NCBI RefSeq assembly: GCF_006345805.1
Contig: NC_043002.1
Span: 71,176,001 to 71,240,000, forward strand
DNA: 64,000 nucleotides
Source of the DNA: Octopus sinensis
Lineage: Eukaryota
Reading direction: 5' to 3'
The translations under genes were made by a program, and so were the position numbers. The notes under the pieces were generated by a model, which made no database searches, had not been told where the DNA came from, and saw only the letters and a list, made by a program, of their open reading frames with translations. Below, piece by piece: positions 17,275 to 62,929 of the stretch; position 1 is the first letter of the stretch; every line of letters starts with the position of its first letter.

Positions 17275-17749
17275 CAGTCGAAGTGTCCAGTACCCACACA
17301 AACATACATACATACATACACATACGCACACACACTCATACACACGCACTCACACACACATATCCATTTATGTATATATCAGAAATTAAAAATGGAAAAT
17401 ACGCTCACTTTACATAGTTTTAATATAATTTTTTATATATCGACCGGTTTCGCTATCGCTATTCCTGATATTATGTTTTACTTATTTGAATATGTGTTTT
17501 CTTAAGAAGAAAATTTTTCCATGTTCTATTTGATGATATTTATGAGTTAATGACTTCACAAGTAGAAAAAAAAGGGGAGTTAATTGGTTATTGTTATTGT
17601 TGTGGGCAAGGGAGATAACTGTTCAGTTTTCGGTAAGGGGAGGGGAATATACATGTACAGACAAAAAAGGTTTCGAAAAAATTTGTTTAGTGAGGGGATT
17701 TATGTACAGTGATGTAATCGTGATTTGAAATATGTAAAAGGATAAAAGT

Positions 17750-18246
17750 TAGTTATGCGTGCATATTAAGACGTGTTCTGTATTTTTCATTGAAAAAAGT
17801 TTACTTAAACGTTCTTGTGGAGAGATTGTTTATTTGCACTGGTGGAAGGCGAAGACTGTGAAATTTGGTTTGATATTATCTGCAAATTTGTCTATATGTT
17901 CACTGAGAGTAATTTGCCTGTATGCTGGAAACGGATTTGCTCTTTATATAGAGTAGTTCTCCTTCTCAAGGTCATACTCGTCTATCCAATATTGCTGTGT
18001 CCGCAACCCGAGCAGGTTATTACATACATCAGGTTCTCAGAGGTACAGTGAAACTAGTTTTAATTGTGAACATTTGAACTTGTTTGAAAAGGAAATCCAA
18101 GCCTTCAGGTAGGTTGGAGCAGCTTCCACAGTTTGGGCGTCCACATTTTTCAACCGTTGGTTTCGTGGTTGTTTTGTAAGATTCGCATTTGGTAGTAATC
18201 TCTTTAATGTCTTTAATAATTTGTCTTGTATTTTGCAAACTACCAC
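17750..18246 (-). pseudogene. Penelope-type GIY-YIG endonuclease fragment, copy 1 (frameshifted)
   Basis: KCGRPNCGSC Cys motif. Same sequence as copy 2 apart from single-base indels. Confidence 0.8.
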
Positions 18247-18430
18247 GAGAACTACAAATTAAATCACGTTAAAACGTGGTACAAATAAAACTAGAATAAA
18301 TAGATATAAATATGTATTTTATCTATGAAAATACATTTTAGCTTATAGAAGAAAAAATAACAAACTATAGTATATCATTACTGGAAAATTCAAATACAAG
18401 AAATTAAAGGAAAATATTTAAAACAATATA

Positions 18431-18503
<73 letters not shown>

Positions 18504-18843
18504 TATATATATAATATATATATATAATATGAGGGAGTATGGATCCAAACTTACAGGAAAAAATTAGATTTAGGATTAACTCAAACTTCACAGTATAAAT
18601 ATATAAAATATGAATTACTGATAAAACCACTATTAGGCAACTCAAACAGTGATAGACATAAACCAATACATAAATAACAAATAATATAATATAATATATA
18701 TATAATATAATTAATATAATAATATAATATATATAATATAATTAATATAATATATATAATATAAAATTTAAATATTTTAAATTTTAAAGAAAATGTTAAC
18801 CAAAAAGTATAAAAAGAATGATAAATATAATATAATAAGTAAG

Positions 18844-18951
18844 ATCACTACGTACGTTTCATGGCTATAATTAAATTTGAATTACAATTAAGTTTAAATT
18901 CAATTGAAATACTTTCGAATTAAAATTATAGTCAATCTTCAGGTTAATGAT
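18844..18951 (-). ncRNA. Type I hammerhead ribozyme motif in Penelope repeat, copy 1
   Basis: Minus strand: atcattaac CTGAAGA ttgactataatt...aattatagccat GAAA cgtacg TA gtgat. Stem III is palindromic, stem II is long, stem I is short and bulged. Confidence 0.7.
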
Positions 18952-19269
18952 AATAGTTAAATAAATAAGCAAGTAGAGTTAAACAATATTTTTAAAGAAA
19001 TAAATAAAATAATAATTTTTCTTAGAAGAAAATTTTTCCATGTTCTATTTGATGATATTTATGAGTTAATGACTTCACAAGTAGAAAAAAAAGGGGAGTT
19101 AATTGGTTATTGTTATTGTTGTGGGCAAGGGAGATAACTGTTCAGTTTTCGGTAAGGGGAGGGGAATACATGTACAGACAAAAAAGGTTTCGAAAAAATT
19201 TGTTAGTGAGGGGATTTATGTACAGTGATGTAATCGTGATTTGAAATATGTAAAAGGATAAAAGTTAGT

Positions 19270-19765
19270 TATGCGTGCATATTAAGACGTGTTCTGTATT
19301 TTTCATTGAAAAAAGTTTACTTAAACGTTCTTGTGGAGAGATTGTTTATTTGCACTGGTGGAAGGCGAAGACTGTGAAATTTGGTTTGATATTATCTGCA
19401 AATTTGTCTATATGTTCACTGAGAGTAATTTGCCTGTATTGCTGGAAACGGATTTGCTCTTTATATAGAGTAGTTCTCCTTCTCAAGGTCATACTCGTCT
19501 ATCCAATATTGCTGTGTCCGCAACCCGAGCAGGTTATTACATACATCAGGTTCTCAGAGGTACAAGTGAAACTAGTTTTAATTGTGAACATTTGAACTTG
19601 TTTGAAAAGGAAATCCAAGCCTTCAGGTAGGTTGGAGCAGCTTCCACAGTTTGGGCGTCCACATTTTTCAACCGTTGGTTTCGTGGTTGTTTTGTAAAGA
19701 TTCGCATTTGGTAGTAATCTCTTTAATGTCTTTAATAATTTGTCTTGTATTTTGCAAACTACCAC
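19270..19765 (-). pseudogene. Penelope-type GIY-YIG endonuclease fragment, copy 2
   Basis: KCGRPNCGSC...FTCTSENLMYVITCSGCGHSNIG*TSMTLRRRTTLYKEQI...LSEH. This matches the PLE Cys linker followed by the 'VIY.I.C..C...YIGET...R' pattern, with in-frame stops. Confidence 0.85.
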
Positions 19766-19949
19766 GAGAACTACAAATTAAATCACGTTAAAACGTGGTA
19801 CAAATAAAACTAGAATAAATAGATATAAATATGTATTTTATCTATGAAAATACATTTTAGCTTATAGAAGAAAAAATAACAAACTATAGTATATCATTAC
19901 TGGAAAATTCAAATACAAGAAATTAAAGGAAAATATTTAAAACAATATA

Positions 19950-20001
<52 letters not shown>

Positions 20002-20320
20002 AATATGAGGGAGTATGGATCCAAACTTACAGGAAAAAATTAGATTTAGGATTAACTCAAACTTCACAGTATAAATATATAAAATATGAATTACTGATAA
20101 AACCACTATTAGGCAACTCAAACAGTGATAGACATAAACCAATACATAAATAACAAATAATATAATATAATATATATAATATAATATATATAATATATAT
20201 ATATAATATATATATATAATAATATAATATATATAATATAAAATTTAAATATTTTAAATTTTAAAGAAAATGTTAACCAAAAAGTATAAAAAGAATGATA
20301 AATATAATATAATAAGTAAG

Positions 20321-20428
20321 ATCACTACGTACGTTTCATGGCTATAATTAAATTTGAATTACAATTAAGTTTAAATTCAATTGAAATACTTTCGAATTAA
20401 AATTATAGTCAATCTTCAGGTTAATGAT
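20321..20428 (-). ncRNA. Type I hammerhead ribozyme motif in Penelope repeat, copy 2
   Basis: Same sequence as 18844-18951. Confidence 0.7.
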
Positions 20429-20914
20429 AATAGTTAAATAAATAAGCAAGTAGAGTTAAACAATATTTTTAAAGAAATAAATAAAATAATAATTTTTCTT
20501 AGAAGAAAACTCCATTATTTAAATTAGAAATTTAAAACATCAGTATTATGTCATACAACTCATTTATTATGTTAGGTATTTATTTTAAGGTAAATAAATA
20601 CATAGAAATATGTATTTATCTATGAAGAAATAATATGGCTTGAAAAAACATAATAAACTCACGAATATATATATATATATATATATATAATTAATCAATA
20701 TAGGGTGGCAAAAAATTTCGTAGAATTTATTTGCCACCAGCGGCCTAGTGGGAAAAAAATAAATAGTCATAGACCATTTATAAGTTCAACATCACAATCA
20801 AGGAATGGCCATAATAGGCCATTCACCCACTAGAAATAACAGCCAAAGTTTCAACCGCAAAATAACATCAATTCCGCAAACCAGGAGAAAATTTAAAAAA
20901 CATTTACACTGTAA

Positions 20915-21019
20915 TTTCTTATACGATGCACCGTTTCATCTATTGTTTAATGGTAAACCAACCTGATTAAATTAAATCAAGCCAATCTTCCATAGGCCGA
21001 TAGATTCGTCAGTAAGAAA
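20915..21019 (-). ncRNA. Type I hammerhead ribozyme, array copy 1
   Basis: Minus strand: tttctta CTGACGA atctat[56 nt]atagat GAAA cggtgcatcg TA^taagaaa. The full conserved core is present with a GUA cleavage triplet. Predicted cut lies between 20922 and 20921. Confidence 0.92.
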
Positions 21020-21395
21020 CAGCCAGATCCGAGCAGATATTATCACGAGGCACCTCTATCCCTGCCTCGGCAATATCTGACCTAAAATTTTCAAATCATC
21101 GCACTCGCGCCAAATTTATCGGCAGCAAATATAAGCCGCCGATTCCATTACGGAATTAACCAGAAAATTCATAATTAATCAATATAGGGTGGCAAAACAT
21201 TCGTAGAATTATTTGCCCCCAGCGGCCTAGTGGGAAAAATTAAAATAGTCATAGACCATTTATAAGTTCAACATCACAATCAAGAATGGCCATAATAGGC
21301 CATTCACCCACTAGAAATAACAGCCAAAGCTTCAACCGCAAAATAACATCAATTCCGCAAACCAGGAGAAAATTAAAAAAACATTTACCCTGTAA

Positions 21396-21500
21396 TTTCT
21401 TATACGATGCACCGTTTCATCTATTGTTTAATGGTAAACTAACCTGATTAAATTAAATCAAGCTAATCTTCCATAGGCCGATAGATTCGTCAGTAAGAAA
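21396..21500 (-). ncRNA. Type I hammerhead ribozyme, array copy 2
   Basis: Same intact core and stems as copy 1. Confidence 0.92.
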
Positions 21501-21877
21501 CAGCCAGATCCGAGCAGATATTATCACGAGGCACCTCTATCCCTGCCTCGGCAATATCTGACCTAAAAGTTTCAAATCATCGCACTCGCGCCAAATTTAT
21601 CGGCAGCAAATATAAGCCGCCGATTCCATTACGGAATTAACCCAAAATTCATAATTAATCAATATAGGGTGGCAAAAAATTTCGTAGAATTATTTGCCAC
21701 CAGCGGCCTAGTGGAAAAAATTAAATAGTCATTGACCATTTATAAGTTCAGCATCACAATCAAGGAATGGCCATAATAGGCCATTCACCCACTAGAAATA
21801 ACAGCCAAAGCTTCAACCGCAAAATAACATTAATTCCGCAAACCAGGAGAAAATTAAAAAAAACATTTACCCTGTAA

Positions 21878-21983
21878 TTTCTTATACGATGCACCGTCTC
21901 ATCTATTGTTTAATGGGTAACTAAACCTGATTAAATTAAATCAAGCTAATCTTCCATAGGCCGATAGATTCGTCAGTAAGAAA
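21878..21983 (-). ncRNA. Type I hammerhead ribozyme, array copy 3 (core mutant GAAA>GAGA)
   Basis: Plus strand reads gcaccgtctc instead of gcaccgtttc at 21898, which is A14G in the core. Confidence 0.8.
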
Positions 21984-22363
21984 CAGCCAGATCCGAGCAG
22001 ATATTATCACGAGGCACCTCTATCCCTGCCTCGGCAATATCTGACCTAAAATTTTCAAATCATCGCACTCGCGCCAAATTTATCGGCAGCAAATATAAGC
22101 CGCCGATTCCATTACGGAATTAACCAGAAAATTCATAATTAATCAATATAGGGTGGCAAAACATTTCGTAGAATTTATTTGCCACCAGCGGCCTAGTGGG
22201 AAAAAATTAAATAGTCATAGACCATTTATAAGTTCAACATCACAATCAAGGAATGGCCATAATAGGCCATTCACCCACTAGAAATAACAGCCAAAGCTTC
22301 AACCGCAAAATAACATCAATTCCGCAAACCAGGAGAAAATTAAAAAAAACATTTACCCTGTAA

Positions 22364-22468
22364 TTTCTTATACGATGCACCGTTTCATCTATTGTTTAAT
22401 GGAAAACTAACCTGATTAAATTAAATCAAGCCAATCTTCCATAGGCCGATAGATTCGTCAGTAAGAAA
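22364..22468 (-). ncRNA. Type I hammerhead ribozyme, array copy 4
   Basis: Intact CTGACGA / GAAA / GTA core and stems I-III. Confidence 0.92.
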
Positions 22469-22847
22469 CAGCCAGATCCGAGCAGATATTATCACGAGGC
22501 ACCTCTATCCCTGCCTCGGCAATATCTGACCTAAAATTTTCAAATCATCGCACTCGCGCCAAATTTATCGGCAGCAAATATAAGCCACCGATTCCATTAC
22601 GGAATTAACCAGAAAATTCATAATTAATCAATATAGGGTGGCAAAAAATTTCGTAGAATTTATTTGCCACCAGCGGCCTAGTGGGAAAAAATTAAATAGT
22701 CATAGACCATTTATAAGTTCAACATCACAATCAAGGAATGGCCATAATAGGCCATTCACCCACTAGAAATAACAGCCAAAGCTTCAACCGCAAAATAACA
22801 TCAATTCCGCAAACCAGGAGAAAATTAAAAAAACATTTACCCTGTAA

Positions 22848-22951
22848 TTTCTTATACGATGCACCGTTTCATCTATTGTTTAATGGTAAACTAACCTGAT
22901 AAATTAAATCAAGCCAATCTTCCATAGGCCGATAGATTCGTCAGTAAGAAA
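22848..22951 (-). ncRNA. Type I hammerhead ribozyme, array copy 5
   Basis: Intact core, with a 1-nt deletion at the distal tip of stem II. Confidence 0.92.
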
Positions 22952-23328
22952 CAGCCAGATCCGAGATATTATCACGAGGCACCTCTATCCCTGCCTCGGC
23001 AATATCTGACCTAAAATTTTCAAATCATCGCACTCGCGCCAAATTTATCGGCAGCAAATATAAGCCGCCGATTCCATTACGGAATTAACCAGAAAATTCA
23101 TAATTAATCAATATAGGGTGGCAAAAAATTTCGTAGAATTTATTTGCCACCAGCGGCCTAGTGGGAAAAAATTAAATAGTCATAGACCATTTATAAGTTC
23201 AACATCACAATCAAGGAATGGCCATAATAGGCCATTCACCCACTAGAAATAACAGCCAAAGCTTCAACCGCAAAATAACATCAATTCCGCAAACCAGGAG
23301 AAAATTTAAAAAAACATTTACCCTGTAA

Positions 23329-23433
23329 TTTCTTATACGATGCACCGTTTCATCTATTGTTTAATGGTAAACTAACCTGATTAAATTAAATCAAGCCAAT
23401 CTTCCATAGGCCGATAGATTCGTCAGTAAGAAA
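23329..23433 (-). ncRNA. Type I hammerhead ribozyme, array copy 6
   Basis: Intact core and stems. A seventh copy at 23813-23849 is truncated. Confidence 0.92.
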
Positions 23434-23843
23434 CAGCCAGATCCGAGCAGATATTATCACGAGGCACCTCTATCCCTGCCTCGGCAATATCTGACCTAAA
23501 ATTTTCAAATCATCGCACTCGCGCCAAATTTATCGGCAGCAAATATAAGCCGCCGATTCCATTACGGAATTAACCAGAAAATTCATAATTAATCAATATA
23601 GGGTGGCAAAAAATTTCGTAGAATTTATTTGCCACCAGCGGCCTAGTGGGAAAAAATTAAATAGTCATAGACCATTTATAAGTTCAACATCACAATCAAG
23701 GAATGGCCATAATAGGCCATTCACCCACTAGAAATAACAGCCAAAGCTTCAACCGCAAAATAACATCAATTCCGCAAACCAGGAGAAAATTAAAAAAACA
23801 TTTACCCTGTAATTTCTTATACGATGCACCGTTTCATCTATTG

Positions 23844-23892
<49 letters not shown>

Positions 23893-24537
23893 AAAATACC
23901 TAATGCACATTAAGTGAAGCTGAAATGCTATAATTTAATCTATATACATTAAAATATTATTTATGTATTTAATAAACATCTAATTTAAATCTTATTCTAA
24001 TTAAGTAATATATACTAAAAAACTTCATGCTAACTTATATACATAATTTTACTACAAACTATGACTACAAGAATTAAAAATAGAAAATGGTTCAAATATA
24101 CACACACAAATTAGTTAAACTTACACTTACTATATAATTAATTGATATAGAGATTTAATATTACACTCACTTATAGAATTAACGAAAGTATCAACTAATA
24201 TTTAAAGTATTTACTTAAATGCAATACTACATAACAAATGAAATTCCTACCTTTTAGATAAGATTTTGTCTTACAAAACTATTTCACAATGTATATTATA
24301 TGTGATGCGTTAATTCACAAGAGAATAACAATAATAAAAGTAATAAGTAGATATGTATCGTAACTATTAATTAGTATGGTGTGATTTAATTATATCATTG
24401 TTGAATTTCTACATGGTGATTCTTTTCTAATTTATATACATATAATATATATATATATTGGGAAATTTGATTTAGTATTACTAAATTGAATTTTTCCCAG
24501 TAAGTTTGGAATCATATTCCCTAAAATTATATATATG

Positions 24538-43659: not shown

Positions 43660-45000
43660 TGAAAGTTAAAGTTCGAGGTAGTCAATTCTATCAACTGCGG
43701 CATATTTCCCCCAACAGTGTCTCTTCTCTTCCCGGTGGCACAATCCCTACAGGCAAGGTTCCGGAACATTCTGGTGCTGTCACCGACTGCCGCCAATGTC
43801 TCGTTTCTTTTCCTCTTCCTCTTTTTCTCTCTCAACGGAGAGATAGTGCGCCTCCTCCGTGACCGGGAGATTCGCCTCCCCTCCCTCATCCCTGGGATCC
43901 ATCGAGGAGCACCCATTGTTGCTCACCTTCTTCCGCTCGCGGCCCTTCTGTGAGGAGTCCTCCGTCTCTTCAGCCGCCTTCTTTCATTCTTTTCTAGAGG
44001 TCTCAATCAACTACTCCAGGACTTTGCTTTATATGGCTTTATTCAGACATTCCAGACATTCCAGATATTCCAGATATTCTAGGTATTTCAGACATTCCAA
44101 ACATTCCAGGAACTTCAGACGTTCCAGACATTCTAGACATTCCGTGACGTGACATTCCATTCCATTCCAGATATTTTAAACATTCCAGACATGACATTGC
44201 AGACATTCCTGACATTCTTGACATTCCAGACATTCCAGGCATTCCAGACGTTCCACTTATTCCAGACATTCCAGACATTTCGGACATTCCAGGTATTCTA
44301 GATAGTCCACACATGACTTTCCTGACATGCTGTGACGTGACGTGACATTCCATTCCATTCTATTCCTTGACGTGAAGTGACGTGACATTCCATTCCATTC
44401 TATTCCTTGACGTGAAGTGACGTGACATTCCATGACGTGATGTGACATTCCATTTAACGTCATTAGACGTCAGGCCATTTAACATCACGTCATGAGCTCC
44501 AGGCACCAATAACACCTGGGAGCAACCCTCAAGAATCTCCAGGTACCTGCATGCGGCCATTTTCAAAAAATCTGGCATAACCAGATTGCTGATTGGGTCC
44601 ACAGGGTCCAAACAGCTTTTGACCCAACCCAATCAGCCACAGGAAGAATTTTCCCATTGAAGAGCCAGGCTCCGCTGCCACGCAGGCCCCGACGGATAGT
44701 ATCCTCTATCCACTGGGGTTCAATTCCGGGTGGCAAACCACAGACCCAAGCCCTCGTCAAATTTTTCCCGCAATAAGTGGGAAGCAACAAAATTTCTTTA
44801 TCCTCAAAATGCTCTGGGGTGTCAAACAGCAACCACACCGTTGCATATTTGACACCCCTAGAGATATACTTAATGGTTGGCAGATGTTCCGCCAACTTCT
44901 GATCAATCATCTGCTTAGAGAAGACGGCAATGTTGTCGAGAACTTTCGAATACTTTCTCAACACCACCGTCCTCTCCTCTTGTTGTCTGAGTCACCCCTT
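43660..45000 (-). pseudogene. LINE ORF1/gag-like relic (L1/Tx1-like) interrupted by a minisatellite insert
   Basis: GC-rich block. ORF 44563-44967 contains AWVCGLPPGIEPQWI, followed by a split zinc knuckle (RCYWCLEL / SHIKQSP) and a basic tract (EKKRKRKR). Confidence 0.6.
44039..44493. repeat. Compound minisatellite of 9-mer (acattccag)n plus tgacgtga/cattc blocks
   Basis: Roughly 25 degenerate acattccag units, a 34-bp direct repeat at ~44338-44430 and many tgacgt motifs. Confidence 0.85.
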
Positions 45001-45949
45001 ATGTGGGACAATCTCTCACTCTACAATCTTATCCGTATTTTTTGCCATGTTTTAAATTAAAAAGTAAATAGTCTAAAACAATAGTTCACAAATTTCAAAA
45101 AGAAAAGAGAAATCAAAAGGAAACAAAATGGAAGAAGAAAAGAAAGCAAACAGTTCAGTAAGAAGGTCACAATAGATAAAGAAAACAACTGTTCAACAAA
45201 ACACAGCAAAAAATCTTCTTTGGCATTCAAGTACTCCAAGCCCTATTGTACTCCGATTAGAACCTTGACTGCTCCACTTGAAATACAGCTCTCCAACGTA
45301 GTTGTACGATGCACACTATTTACAAACAGCAAACGACTTTTGGTGTCAGAATACGTCACCAACCAATATTTCTCATAATGAGAAAACATTTTTACTTCAT
45401 GTGAACACTTAAAATGCAGTTTTCCAATAATGCTAATGTTGTTGTAAAAACATACTCTGTTAGAAAGTGAACAACTCTTGGTTGAAGGATACGCCCACCA
45501 AACTGTACATCTCACAATGAGAAAAAGATTTTCATTTACTATGAACCATATTGCTGAACCGCATGTAGACCAACATCTTGAATCCAGTGAGGATTCCCAG
45601 TTTGTAAAACATATAAGCACAAATAACGACCCTCACTGGGTCCAAGAGAACAGTCTTACCTTGCAGGAACTTCTTTTGGCAGGCTAAACACTGCCGGCTA
45701 TCTTCTTCAGTACACAACACAATGACATATGCGCACACTGATAACTGAGACTCATGGGAAATAGGTTAGCAAGCTACTTTCTACACAGGCACTTACTACA
45801 CTTACTACTCATCACGAACACAGTACACTACCGCGGTCCAGGAGTCTACGAACTCGAATAGCCAAAAGGCCATGCACACACAAGCACGCACACACACACA
45901 CGCACACACACACACACACACACATATACGCTCACACATACATTTACAT

Positions 45950-46775: not shown

Positions 46776-46982
<207 letters not shown>

Positions 46983-47591
46983 TGGAGTTAATTTGTTCGA
47001 CTAAAGGCGGTACTCCAGCATGGCGGCAACCAAATGATTGAAACAAGTAAAGGAATACAATAATAAATATGCGTGTATGTGTATAAAATAACCTTTGCAC
47101 TTGATTTTTTAATGTTTTTTCCCCCATACTTTTGTGAATTAGTTTAGGCAAACACTATCTGAGAGAGATCTTCTTTAAGTATTAGAAATAGCTGAAGAAA
47201 TTTCTTTAGCTGCTATTTCTAATGAGTTCAGTATGTGGCAAAGTAATTTATTTTACTAAGCCCTTATATATAATGTAATATTTTGAATTCGCCTATAATG
47301 GTCCCTTTACATACTGAATACTTGGTGAAATTGATTAATAATTAATTAATTTTACCCTCAATTGTTGAAATTATAATTCATCTTTCTCTGTAAAATGCTG
47401 CGGTTTTCACCGTTAATACATGGTGTTTGTCAATTTTAACCCACGCTGGTGGAAAGGGGAAAGCAGAAATTCTTCGCTTGCATATTCGAATTTGATAGCA
47501 CTTTTAGTTCGAGCAGAATTCTAGAGGTGATTAGAAGCCGAAAGGGTATGCTCCCGACTTTCAGTGTTCCCAAATCCGATCCAAGGAATTC

Positions 47592-47643
47592 TGAGCTGAA
47601 GAAAGAAATGTCGAATTGACTAATCTAGAAACGTACGTTCTCA
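47592..47643 (+). ncRNA. Minimal type I hammerhead motif, 556-bp array copy 1
   Basis: tgag CTGAAGA aagaaatgtc gaatt gactaatcta GAAA cgtacg TT^ctca. Core and palindromic stem III are intact. Stem II has several mismatches. Confidence 0.7.
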
Positions 47644-48147
47644 AATAACCTTTGCACTTGATTTTTTAATGTTTTTTCCCCCATACTTTTGTGAATTAGT
47701 TAGGCAAACACTATCTGAGAGAGATCTTCTTTAAGTATTAGAAATAGCTGAAGAAATTTCTTTAGCTGCTATTTCTAATGAGTTCAGTATGTGGCAAAGT
47801 AATTTATTTTACTAAGCCCTTATATATAATGTAATATTTTGAATTCGCCTATAATGGTCCCTTTACATACTGAATACTTGGTGAAATTGATTAATAATTA
47901 ATTAATTTTACCCTCAATTGTTGAAATTATAATTCATCTTTCTCTGTAAAATGCTGCGGTTTTCACCGTTAATACATGGTGTTTGTCAATTTTAACCCAC
48001 GCTGGTGGAAAGGGGAAAGCAGAAATTCTTCGCTTGCATATTCGAATTTGATAGCACTTTTAGTTCGAGCAGAATTCTAGAGGTGATTAGAAGCCGAAAG
48101 GGTATGCTCCCGACTTTCAGTGTTCCCAAATCCGATTCAAGGAATTC

Positions 48148-48199
48148 TGAGCTGAAGAAAGAAATGTCGAATTGACTAATCTAGAAACGTACGTTCTCA
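48148..48199 (+). ncRNA. Minimal type I hammerhead motif, 556-bp array copy 2
   Basis: Same sequence as 47592-47643. Confidence 0.7.
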
Positions 48200-48479
48200 A
48201 ATAACCTTTGCACTTGATTTTTTAATGTTTTTTCCCCCATACTTTTGTGAATTAGTTTAGGCAAACACTATCTGAGAGAGATCTTCTTTAAGTATTAGAA
48301 ATAGCTGAAGAAATTTCTTTAGCTGCTATTTCTAATGAGTTCAGTATGTGGCAAAGTATTTATTTTACTAAGCCCTTATATATAATGTAATATTTTGAAT
48401 TCGCCTATAATGGTCCCTTTACATACTGAATACTTGGTGAAATTGATTAATAATTAATTAATTTTACCCTCAATTGTTG

Positions 48480-48515
<36 letters not shown>

Positions 48516-49031
48516 CTATTTATAGACGTAAATAGTGTGGAAGTCAATGCTTTCTTGCAATAATTCAAAAATCCAGACTAGACCAACTTTCTGTAACGCT
48601 GCAAAGCTGAGCGTTAAACTTAGCGTGTATGTGTGTATATGTATATGAGTGTACATATGAATATATATAGATATATATGTCTGTGTGCACGTTTATGTAA
48701 AGGATTGTACGCGTGTACGTTGATGTGCATATGCGTAAGTGTATGCATTTGTGTATTATGTATAGAAAATCTCGTACACCTATATTTCCAGGTGATTCTT
48801 TAAAGACAACTTATCCTAGAGAGAAACATTCATTTTAAGCATAGTACACTAATGCTGAATAAATCGATAAATATTCAAAAAATCGATACGCATTTTCATA
48901 ATGTCTAAATACAAAAATTATTTTAAATTTACATGACTTTCACTTACTTTTTCCATAAGCAGCTATTTCCATTCGCGTGTACATGAGTATATGCATATAT
49001 ACAAATACACACAAACAAGGTGTATGTATAT

Positions 49032-61346: not shown

Positions 61347-62929
61347 CTTGAAAAGTAGGTTGCTCTAAAGTAGAGAGCCATGCCCATATGTGTTAGAAAG
61401 ATCGCTTGATCTCTTCCGTCCTGGTCAAGGGGAGTGCTAACCGTCTCTCCTTTTTTGCAACGCTCTTTGTAATTTAATGGCAAACGAAGAATGCATTTGT
61501 GCCAGATGTAACATGTTAAGTCATGGACTTAAGAATGATATTATACTGCAGTAAACAAATATGAGAAATACAGGAATAATAAAGCTTTTAATAAAAGGAT
61601 TAAACCTCATGTAGTTATGTCTTCTATATAACATGTTAGGAAAAAAAACTTGCCGCACATATAAAATACGTATAGTGATATAGTTCTATATTTAAGACAT
61701 GAGGAATTATGTACATTATTTACATTCGACGAATATTTGTCCCCATCTTGATTGTTGTTAACACAACCTTTCTGCTGATATACCCTCCAGCCTTCTTCAG
61801 GTGTCCTGGGGAAATTTCGAACCTGGTTTCTCATTCCTAAAGTATTTTTCAATGCTATAATAATAATAATAATTATAATAAGTATTATTATTATTATTAT
61901 TATTGTTGTTGTTGTTGTTCAAGTCACTGCTTGGAATCGAACTCGTAATCTTGGGGTTAGTAACCCGCGCTCTTAACCACTACGCCACATGCCTGTGGAT
62001 GTATAATGACATATTTCGTTTGTGTATGTTCCTATATGTGGCTGTGTCTGTGTGCATTCGAATTACGTGTGGTACCGAACAGTTTCCATTTGGTGTATTT
62101 TATTTGCCAAATGACCAGAGTTTACGGCAGAAAATATTTGCTTAAATGCCGCACAGGGCAATTGACAAATAAAATTACATGGCTCTAAAATAACTTGCTT
62201 ACCACAGTGCCACTTCTGTTGACATGTGCATTGTTGTCTGTACGTTCATTTAATAATTCTTTAACATTGTATAGTGGGAGTATAATTAAGAGTCTGTACC
62301 GTTAGTTTATTATTCATAATTTAATGCAATTCCTACTTTACATATGCATCAACTTCTGTAAATATTTTGCTTTATCCTCAAGAGAATATGAAAAACAAAA
62401 CGCTGTAGAAAGTTTGCAAATTTTACATCAGTTATTTAACGTTTAGACATAACTTAGATACAACTACAATTCAAGTTATACGTCAGCCATTAATTATTAA
62501 TTTGGTTAATGTAGTAATCGGTAAAAATAGTTACTCAATTTCGCAAAAGTAATGTTTATTTTCCATATACAGCATTCTATTTTTAAAGCTATACGTTCTT
62601 ACAAACTAATGTAACTATTGTTTGCTGCTTAAACGAATAAGCTGTCTGTTCTATTCTGTGCTGTAATGAAAAGTTGAATATGAACACAGTTGAATATAAC
62701 GATTAACCCTTTGATAGGGAAGGTCTGTAAGCATTAGTTCGGAAATGAAATTTGCTTGAGAGTTACAAGCTCAGATCCAAAACGTTTTTAAGAACAGTCT
62801 TACCGTTTTTTTAAAATTATTTATATGTTTTTTCTTTGTTTTTTAAGGAGAAACCTAGCTTCAAGCTACTTTTTTCAGGTCAATTTTTACGCACCCTTCT
62901 AAACCTCAGAAAAATAAGAAACTTAGAAA

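Follow-up and report, generated by a model that had tools for sequence, protein, structure and literature searches.

The hammerhead array in the window

The DNA analysed here, hereafter the window, is a 64,000-nucleotide (nt) stretch of the Octopus sinensis genome (assembly GCF_006345805.1, contig NC_043002.1, positions 71,176,001 to 71,240,000). At 20687-23849 on its minus strand lies a tandem array with type I hammerhead ribozymes, which an initial annotation had described as 6.5 non-coding units of ~483 nt and proposed to be a retrozyme. Tandem Repeats Finder reproduced the coordinates and the repeat structure in the 64-kb window (period 485, 6.5 copies, 97% matches), and placed (AT)n tracts on both flanks, at 20665-20689 and 23848-23892. 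The features of the array are as follows, with unit positions numbered from the cut site.

20687..23849, minus strand: candidate retrozyme array, 6.5 units of 481-486 nt, single arm, 3′ end at the long site (nt 235) (repeat finding, monomer alignment, end mapping)
20665..20689, unstranded: (TA)n at the array 3′ end, putative target (repeat finding)
23848..23892, unstranded: (TA)n at the array 5′ end, putative target (repeat finding)
20687..20862, minus strand: structured domain with both family-wide 3′ ends, short site (nt ~131) at 20791 and long site (nt ~235) at 20687 (end mapping, predicted fold)
23328..23434, minus strand: type I hammerhead 1, predicted cut after 23336 (motif/structure scan)
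22847..22952, minus strand: type I hammerhead 2, predicted cut after 22855 (motif/structure scan, fold)
22363..22469, minus strand: type I hammerhead 3, predicted cut after 22371 (motif/structure scan)
21877..21984, minus strand: type I hammerhead 4, GAGA replacing GAAA in the core, predicted cut site after 21885 (motif/structure scan)
21395..21501, minus strand: type I hammerhead 5, predicted cut after 21403 (motif/structure scan)
20914..21020, minus strand: type I hammerhead 6, predicted cut after 20922 (motif/structure scan)
23812..23849, minus strand: 3′ half of a seventh hammerhead, 5′-truncated and lacking the CUGA core, cut site after 23820 (sequence)

From cut site to cut site, the monomers are 484, 481, 484, 486, 482, and 481 nt long, and their pairwise identity is 97.1-99.6% over all 15 pairs. 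The differences are mostly single-unit changes, many of them homopolymer indels. The GC content of the unit is 0.38. Among the open reading frames (ORFs) overlapping the array, none is longer than 66 amino acids (aa) and none encodes a reverse transcriptase (RT) plus GIY-YIG, so the units are non-coding as annotated. The array has its 5′ end at monomer nt ~455. Newt satellite 2, schistosome Sm-alpha, and cricket satellites are also tandem hammerhead repeats, with dimer-assisted cleavage possible; unlike them, the 484-nt unit has no match to an RNA polymerase III A/B box or octamer.

The minus strand has six complete hammerheads, of which five have an unaltered core. The motifs named in the initial annotation were all found there, including the GUA cut site that follows 20922, but an intact hammerhead in each unit was too much to claim: the seventh lacks its CUGA half, and the fourth is probably impaired by its GAGA core. 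The unit contains the CUGANGA and GAAA cores, an NUH cut site, and three stems with stem I open. Stem I had been read as 7 bp, extendable across a UUA bulge; its motifs are present, but it has 8 bp including one G-U pair and extends across a GCU/UA internal loop. Stem II has 6 bp, its halves enclosing a ~56-nt extension with a long hairpin. Stem III is self-complementary, with predicted energies of −17.5 kcal/mol as a duplex and −0.2 as a hairpin, and the dimer through two near-palindromic stem IIIs, as annotated, is plausible in this model.

A both-strand structure scan of the whole window, requiring a stem I of at least 5 bp, gave only these six hammerheads, and the fold of the hammerhead region has a z-score of −4.6, with 0 of 200 shuffles equally good. 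A chance origin of the hammerheads is therefore rejected. The covariance-model scan proposed in the annotation did not bear it out, as the Rfam hammerhead models gave no match at the gathering score or at E ≤ 10; the ~56-nt stem II extension may explain this miss.

The predicted fold of the circular monomer has −150 kcal/mol and a z-score of −6.0 over 40 shuffles; the opposite strand reaches −8.3, so the strand is not fixed thereby. Monomer nt ~303-309 (about window 22546-22552, minus strand) are complementary to the cut-site region, and by this pairing the predicted circular fold buries the hammerhead core and the cut site. Such occlusion would protect a circle, as far as the prediction goes. 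Most animal retrozymes in the available text of PMC7229834 are unlike that.

Dispersed copies and the ends of their arms

The genome searched comprises 2.72 Gb, and only top candidates were scored in genome searches. Its haemocyanin genes are of molluscan type and seem to contain seven units apiece; among PDB entries, single units matched 4yd9_C (squid) and 1js8_A (octopus) best, with 661 and 650 bits, the following ones reaching 467 and 370. As seven units are characteristic of octopods, the host by this evidence is a mollusc and most likely an octopod. Unit matches numbered 229 within the 40 scored of 1516 candidates. The core 12-mer had 627 exact matches against 118 for a control word, therefore the family has roughly 500 units as a lower bound. 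Both counts set the array among dispersed copies, rather than making it the purely local satellite that the annotation had named as the contrary outcome.

Conservation was examined over the family. In 32 distinct hammerheads, the structure pairs in 98.1% of cells, versus 27-45% when slid. Compensatory two-sided changes were found in two pairs (four cells), all in stem I; most pairs never vary, the family being young. The core is nearly invariant among 143-155 aligned units, with CUGA in 143-144 of 143-144 pieces, and the cut-site region is (near-)invariant in 155 aligned copies. Fully intact hammerheads occur in 115 of 144 complete copies. On these sequence grounds, the dispersed copies, the near-invariant core, and the compensatory changes support the annotated candidate as part of a dispersed animal retrozyme family of the type without long terminal repeats (non-LTR), with the features that define this class in sequence.

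The element itself is of a known class, and the new part is its insertion anatomy. Metazoan non-LTR retrozymes of coral, Mytilus mussel, and axolotl (Cervera and de la Pena 2020, PMC7229834) are likewise dispersed tandem non-coding repeats whose units each have a single type I hammerhead, with less than 50% GC, an RNA that pairs strongly with itself, a weak palindromic stem III, and Penelope-like elements (PLEs) in the genome. On the other hand, the family here has a cephalopod host, a 484-nt unit, and a ~56-nt stem II extension; its two fixed 3′ ends and the arrangement of inverted arms in pairs within (TA)n are not described in the available text of that source, where expression and circles are demonstrated, whereas this family is known from genomic sequence. 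The unit had been thought larger than known animal retrozymes. The repeats in PMC7229834 are 150-450 bp, but vertebrate non-LTR retrozymes span 51-972 bp (Li, Clavereau, Pollet, bioRxiv 10.64898/2026.07.22.740005), a range that includes it. These vertebrate elements are of the same class with the same proposed PLE partner. Their PLE link consists of co-occurrence and of pseudo-LTR (pLTR) homology in Xenopus, with no mollusc sampled in the available text, whereas for the family here a pLTR homology was looked for and not found, and it is the insertion signature that provides the link. Our literature search found no report of cephalopod retrozymes or of paired long and short retrozyme ends, in agreement with the annotation, which knew of no description in octopus; supplements and Repbase/Dfam may list cephalopod families. 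Retrozymes are thereby extended to cephalopods.

Insertion anatomy was mapped at 68 loci. Of the 40 scored, 38 were used and two on small contigs were excluded; a held-out set came from 40 further sites among the first 100 listed pattern hits, of which 30 belonged to the family and 10 were chance words. Arms are 0.1 to 9.2 units long. Their 3′ ends fall into two narrow ranges: among 115 ends, 58 lie at nt 123-146 (short), 51 at nt 226-243 (long), and 6 elsewhere. The proportion inside the two ranges is 60/64 in the first set and 49/51 in the held-out set. A (TA)n tract begins within 22 nt of the arm end in 61/64 and 50/51 cases, or 111/115 overall; target-site duplications are not readable inside (TA)n.

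Two arms in head-to-head orientation are present at 47 of the 68 loci. In 40 of them, a short end is matched with a long one; one locus has two short ends, two long ends occur at none, and at six loci one end is unclassifiable. The one-of-each pairing occurs at 21 of 26 two-armed loci in the first set and 19 of 21 in the held-out set. Where both ends are classifiable, it holds in 21/22 (p = 5e-6 versus free choice) and 19/19 (p = 2e-6). The window array is single-armed and long-ended.

Errors of assembly could in principle generate arrays and inversions, or a local satellite could carry hammerhead-like words by chance. Many unit differences are homopolymer indels, and L241 and L242 resemble one duplicated segment, so one pairing count is not independent. 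However, one end rule holds across 68 loci that differ in flanks, arm lengths, and subfamily variants, and contigs from public runs under two organism labels match the unit at 90% or more. Four such runs were compared, three of them RNA by conjecture; the contig depth on the unit, up to ~2400 in one of the three, and the uncovered flanks are given no weight as signs of expression. We regard this explanation as scarcely credible.

The 5′ ends lie anywhere in the monomer. Cut linear templates would be expected to pile 5′ ends up at the cut site, and this candidate was rejected, as only 3 of 111 lie within 6 nt of it against 2.75 expected. A wider range of −10 to +25 holds 14/111 (p = 0.03), but it was chosen post hoc and is not relied on. 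At one locus (L011:2561 onward), the 5′ end of a retrozyme arm is joined to a short telomere-like TTAGGG run.

Another source of such insertions could be a long interspersed nuclear element (LINE) that moves the RNA as it would a short interspersed nuclear element, with inversions by L1-type twin priming. 5′ truncation and inversion are also products of LINEs, and arm junctions share 1-5 bases in 18/26 and 8/21 cases of the two sets. In twin priming, however, the first start is the RNA 3′ end and the second is variable, whereas both starts here are fixed and internal, no poly(A) tail was found at the mapped family insertions, and the tail rule of PLEs described below is matched. A LINE is thus a very improbable mobiliser. 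There was also no LTR-type layout in the 68 loci, although no search aimed at a primer binding site or polypurine tract was made.

Endonuclease-containing (EN+) PLEs of the Neptune/Nematis type and the anole Poseidon element PAc (10.1101/2021.04.23.441226; PMC11167929) have the same signature, namely 5′ truncation, an inverted partner copy, a tail at one end, (TA)n or AT-rich targets, and reverse transcription that starts downstream of the hammerhead cut. The purified protein of a PLE, predicted to be a dimer, makes nicks in both strands of the target and extends them; its two start sites are internal to the RNA and delimit the tail seen in the genome (PMC11167929). By analogy, the two fixed 3′ ends would be two RT starts of a PLE, one per strand. 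The short and long sites are separated by 104 nt, a segment that we equate with the PLE ‘tail’ and that is present in every unit, and 20687..20862 would be the RT start domain. In contrast to EN+ PLEs, the family here has no ORF, a full rather than minimal hammerhead, and up to 9 full turns per arm. The pairing of long and short ends is also strict here, whereas PAc has no strand difference in vitro in the available text (PMC11167929).

Four PLE families, A to D, were sampled in this genome. In families A and B, a minimal hammerhead is followed after ~60-75 nt by a first end and then, optionally, by a tail of 30-55 nt, leading into (TA)n. Their hammerheads (L052-L076, L120-L159) have the core pair A3-U8 in family A and U3-A8 in family B; the latter appears in PMC4209133, and the former was not found in its available text. 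Family B retains intact 781-aa frames that are 98-100% alike. The young family with the 781-aa frames, which also has an upstream open-looking region, and another family with a 775-aa frame and a CUGAAGA hammerhead are found at L146-L150 and L153. Family C ends only ~160-175 nt past the cut site, although the query favoured short ends. In family D, no hammerhead was found in the stretch read; its loci (L188-L199) have a duplicated ~300-nt 3′ segment containing (TA)n.

Template and proposed mechanism

As the start sites are no farther from the cut than 131 and 235 nt, a cut linear monomer would yield short products that stop there; arms instead cross the cut up to nine times without a pile-up of ends. 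Therefore, the template was either a circle or an uncut multimer. A circle is favoured over a multimer because variants are fixed across all units. In 317 pieces, substitutions per site are 0.0116 within an arm and 0.0111 between opposite arms, compared with 0.0311 between loci; at 23 diagnostic sites, the differences are 2.1%, 1.8%, and 35%, respectively. Locus-private variants are fixed in all covering units of both arms, 8/8 at L045, 4/4 at L027, and 3/3 at each of L003, L016, L041, and L048. At L031, with arms of 4.7 and 4.4 units, no internal variant is shared in 11 pieces, and the same lack is seen in 10 of 20 loci having five or more pieces. A circular RNA is thus the likely template.

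The uncut linear multimer would use the same PLE machinery and the same two starts, with circles as by-products and the hammerhead serving another stage. It is kept alive by the in vitro preference for uncut RNA and by mixed arrays, since hammerhead mutants left PLE insertion in vitro unchanged and the reaction accepted unprocessed RNA (PMC11167929), and arrays such as L043 and L036 fit. The even spread of 5′ ends fits uncut RNA too. However, a new variant can become fixed throughout the units of both arms only by way of a one-unit bottleneck, and the uniform presence of CUGA, the near-invariant core, and the compensatory stem I changes also stand against this reading, as does the lack of shared internal variants at half of the larger loci. 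An uncut template is rather unlikely.

Arrays might instead have grown in place by unequal crossover or slippage after monomers or short pieces had inserted; a satellite-birth route by local amplification is discussed in bioRxiv 10.64898/2026.07.22.740005. Some local duplication is indicated by variant blocks that recur in L043 and by two adjacent like units in L036. On the other hand, more than 1.3 units lie on each side of the inversion at 12 loci, where unequal crossover needs a prior tandem pair per side, and the window units differ chiefly by single-unit changes. Local growth as the origin of the arrays is improbable. A dimer periodicity in the arrays was not clear.

A PLE link for retrozymes was proposed in 2020 (PMC7229834), and the proposal that circles template copies longer than one unit goes back to 2014 (PMC4209133), while the mobilisation mechanism is still called unresolved in a 2026 preprint (10.64898/2026.07.22.740005). 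We propose the following course. First, read-through transcription would produce multimeric minus-strand RNA. Second, the type I hammerheads, perhaps aided by paired palindromic stem IIIs, would cut it to ~484-nt monomers, as their structure and conservation suggest, and a host ligase would close the monomers into circles. Third, a PLE RT/GIY-YIG protein would bind the folded RNA domain and nick both strands of (TA)n; reverse transcription would start on each strand at one of the two fixed internal sites, nt ~131 and nt ~235 counted from the cut, and products with these ends are observed in the genome. Fourth, each RT would read across the ligated cut site and travel 0.1 to 9 times around the circle, and the two complementary DNAs would be joined at the ends away from their starts, in most cases through a few bases in common. 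This would leave a pair of head-to-head arms with the same variant, one ending at the long site and the other at the short site. A single arm would arise when the second start fails, as at the window array, and some arrays would be reshuffled locally later.

PLE-type mobilisation is very probable. That the full scheme holds, in which a non-coding, non-autonomous retrozyme parasitises a PLE whose protein primes both strands at two internal sites and copies a circular RNA, seems fairly likely to us.

Several observations weigh against this scheme. L043, L036, L050, and L042 have arrays of mixed composition. In 76 comparisons, the partner arm alone was closest 25 times and shared that place with another arm 25 times, and in 26 a different arm was closer. 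‘Private’ variants may have sources outside the 68 sampled loci, and arms of a single variant that do not stop at the cut site would also be expected from an uncut multimer if its source array were homogeneous. Stem II opens with A-U where G-C is usual (PMC4209133), the predicted monomer fold lacks stem III, and in vitro cleavage failed for 8 of the 9 retrozyme dimers predicted in Xenopus (10.64898/2026.07.22.740005). The 104-nt tail is longer than the 30-55 nt of PLE families A and B and the 30-40 bp of published PLEs (10.1101/2021.04.23.441226; PMC11167929). The 484-nt unit has no sequence homology, pLTR included, to the four sampled PLE families, although others may exist. Finally, the anole PLE in vitro needed no hammerhead cleavage, used unprocessed RNA, and had no strand difference in start site (PMC11167929).

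The paired ends, the shared variants, and the read-through of the cut site provide genomic evidence on the mobiliser and on the circle as template, and the strict one-long, one-short rule is an addition, not seen in the single PLE system studied in vitro. Since the genome also has young intact PLE frames, one protein and a small RNA could serve to rebuild the reaction.

A second hammerhead family and neighbouring features

The window contains a second hammerhead family, unrelated to the first, and PLE fragments.

47085..48484, plus strand: second hammerhead family with a 556-nt unit present ~2.5 times, hammerheads spanning 47593-47642 and 48149-48198, arm running to its long site (nt ~292) in (TA)n (repeat and end mapping)
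46880..46985, minus strand: inverted arm of the 556-nt family, ending at the short site (nt ~190-198) in (TA)n (end mapping)
17400..18425, minus strand: broken 3′ PLE fragment with GIY-YIG region, 3′ untranslated region (UTR), and a minimal hammerhead near 17440-17470 (sequence comparison)
19030-19945: second copy of the PLE fragment, within a 1.5-kb local duplication (sequence comparison)

The 556-nt family (window 46777-48524) has 1349 candidates in the genome, with copies 96-100% alike, a compact hammerhead, and up to about 11 units at G000:C11411. It shares no significant sequence with the 484-nt family. At its two-armed loci, ends at nt ~190-200 are paired with ends at nt ~292 in seven of eight cases, and the eighth pairs 172 with 292. 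The end regions of both families are predicted to form a long stem around the first site and then, ahead of the second one, a GGUG-closed hairpin, with z-scores of −5.1 and −4.6, the likeness between the families being judged by eye. Tentatively, the insertions might be a record of the PLE reaction as it ran in vivo: an asymmetric PLE dimer might hold one circular RNA and start one strand per site, giving two opposite rolling-circle reverse transcriptions, and unrelated families, alike in this fold and in a ~100-nt tail, might recruit it by shape without pLTR homology; we put this forward as a possibility somewhat short of probable. If it is true, the mobiliser of animal retrozymes is named, the circle is the transposition intermediate, and a telomerase-related RT gains a 0.5-kb programmable template.

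The ~1.5-kb local tandem duplication (window 17497-20509, 96% identity) spans the PLE fragment and a third repeat. A 91-aa PLE remnant in the window had no Pfam match. The third repeat (20008-20660 and 18530-19030, minus strand; L103-L115) is long, AT-rich, 5′-truncated, and non-coding. It contains one hammerhead with an extended stem II, has 1608 candidates, and is not tandem. No PLE protein match was found within 1.5 kb of 13 copies; the repeat may be a non-autonomous PLE or else belong, as the 3′ UTR, to a PLE not yet found. A relative lies in the opposite orientation at 23892-24530.

Elsewhere in the window, a U6atac small nuclear RNA gene or pseudogene was found at 61351-61463 (minus strand, 77.7 bits), and tandem repeats of 9 to 40 bp at 44044-44454 adjoin LINE-like open frames at 44566-45057.

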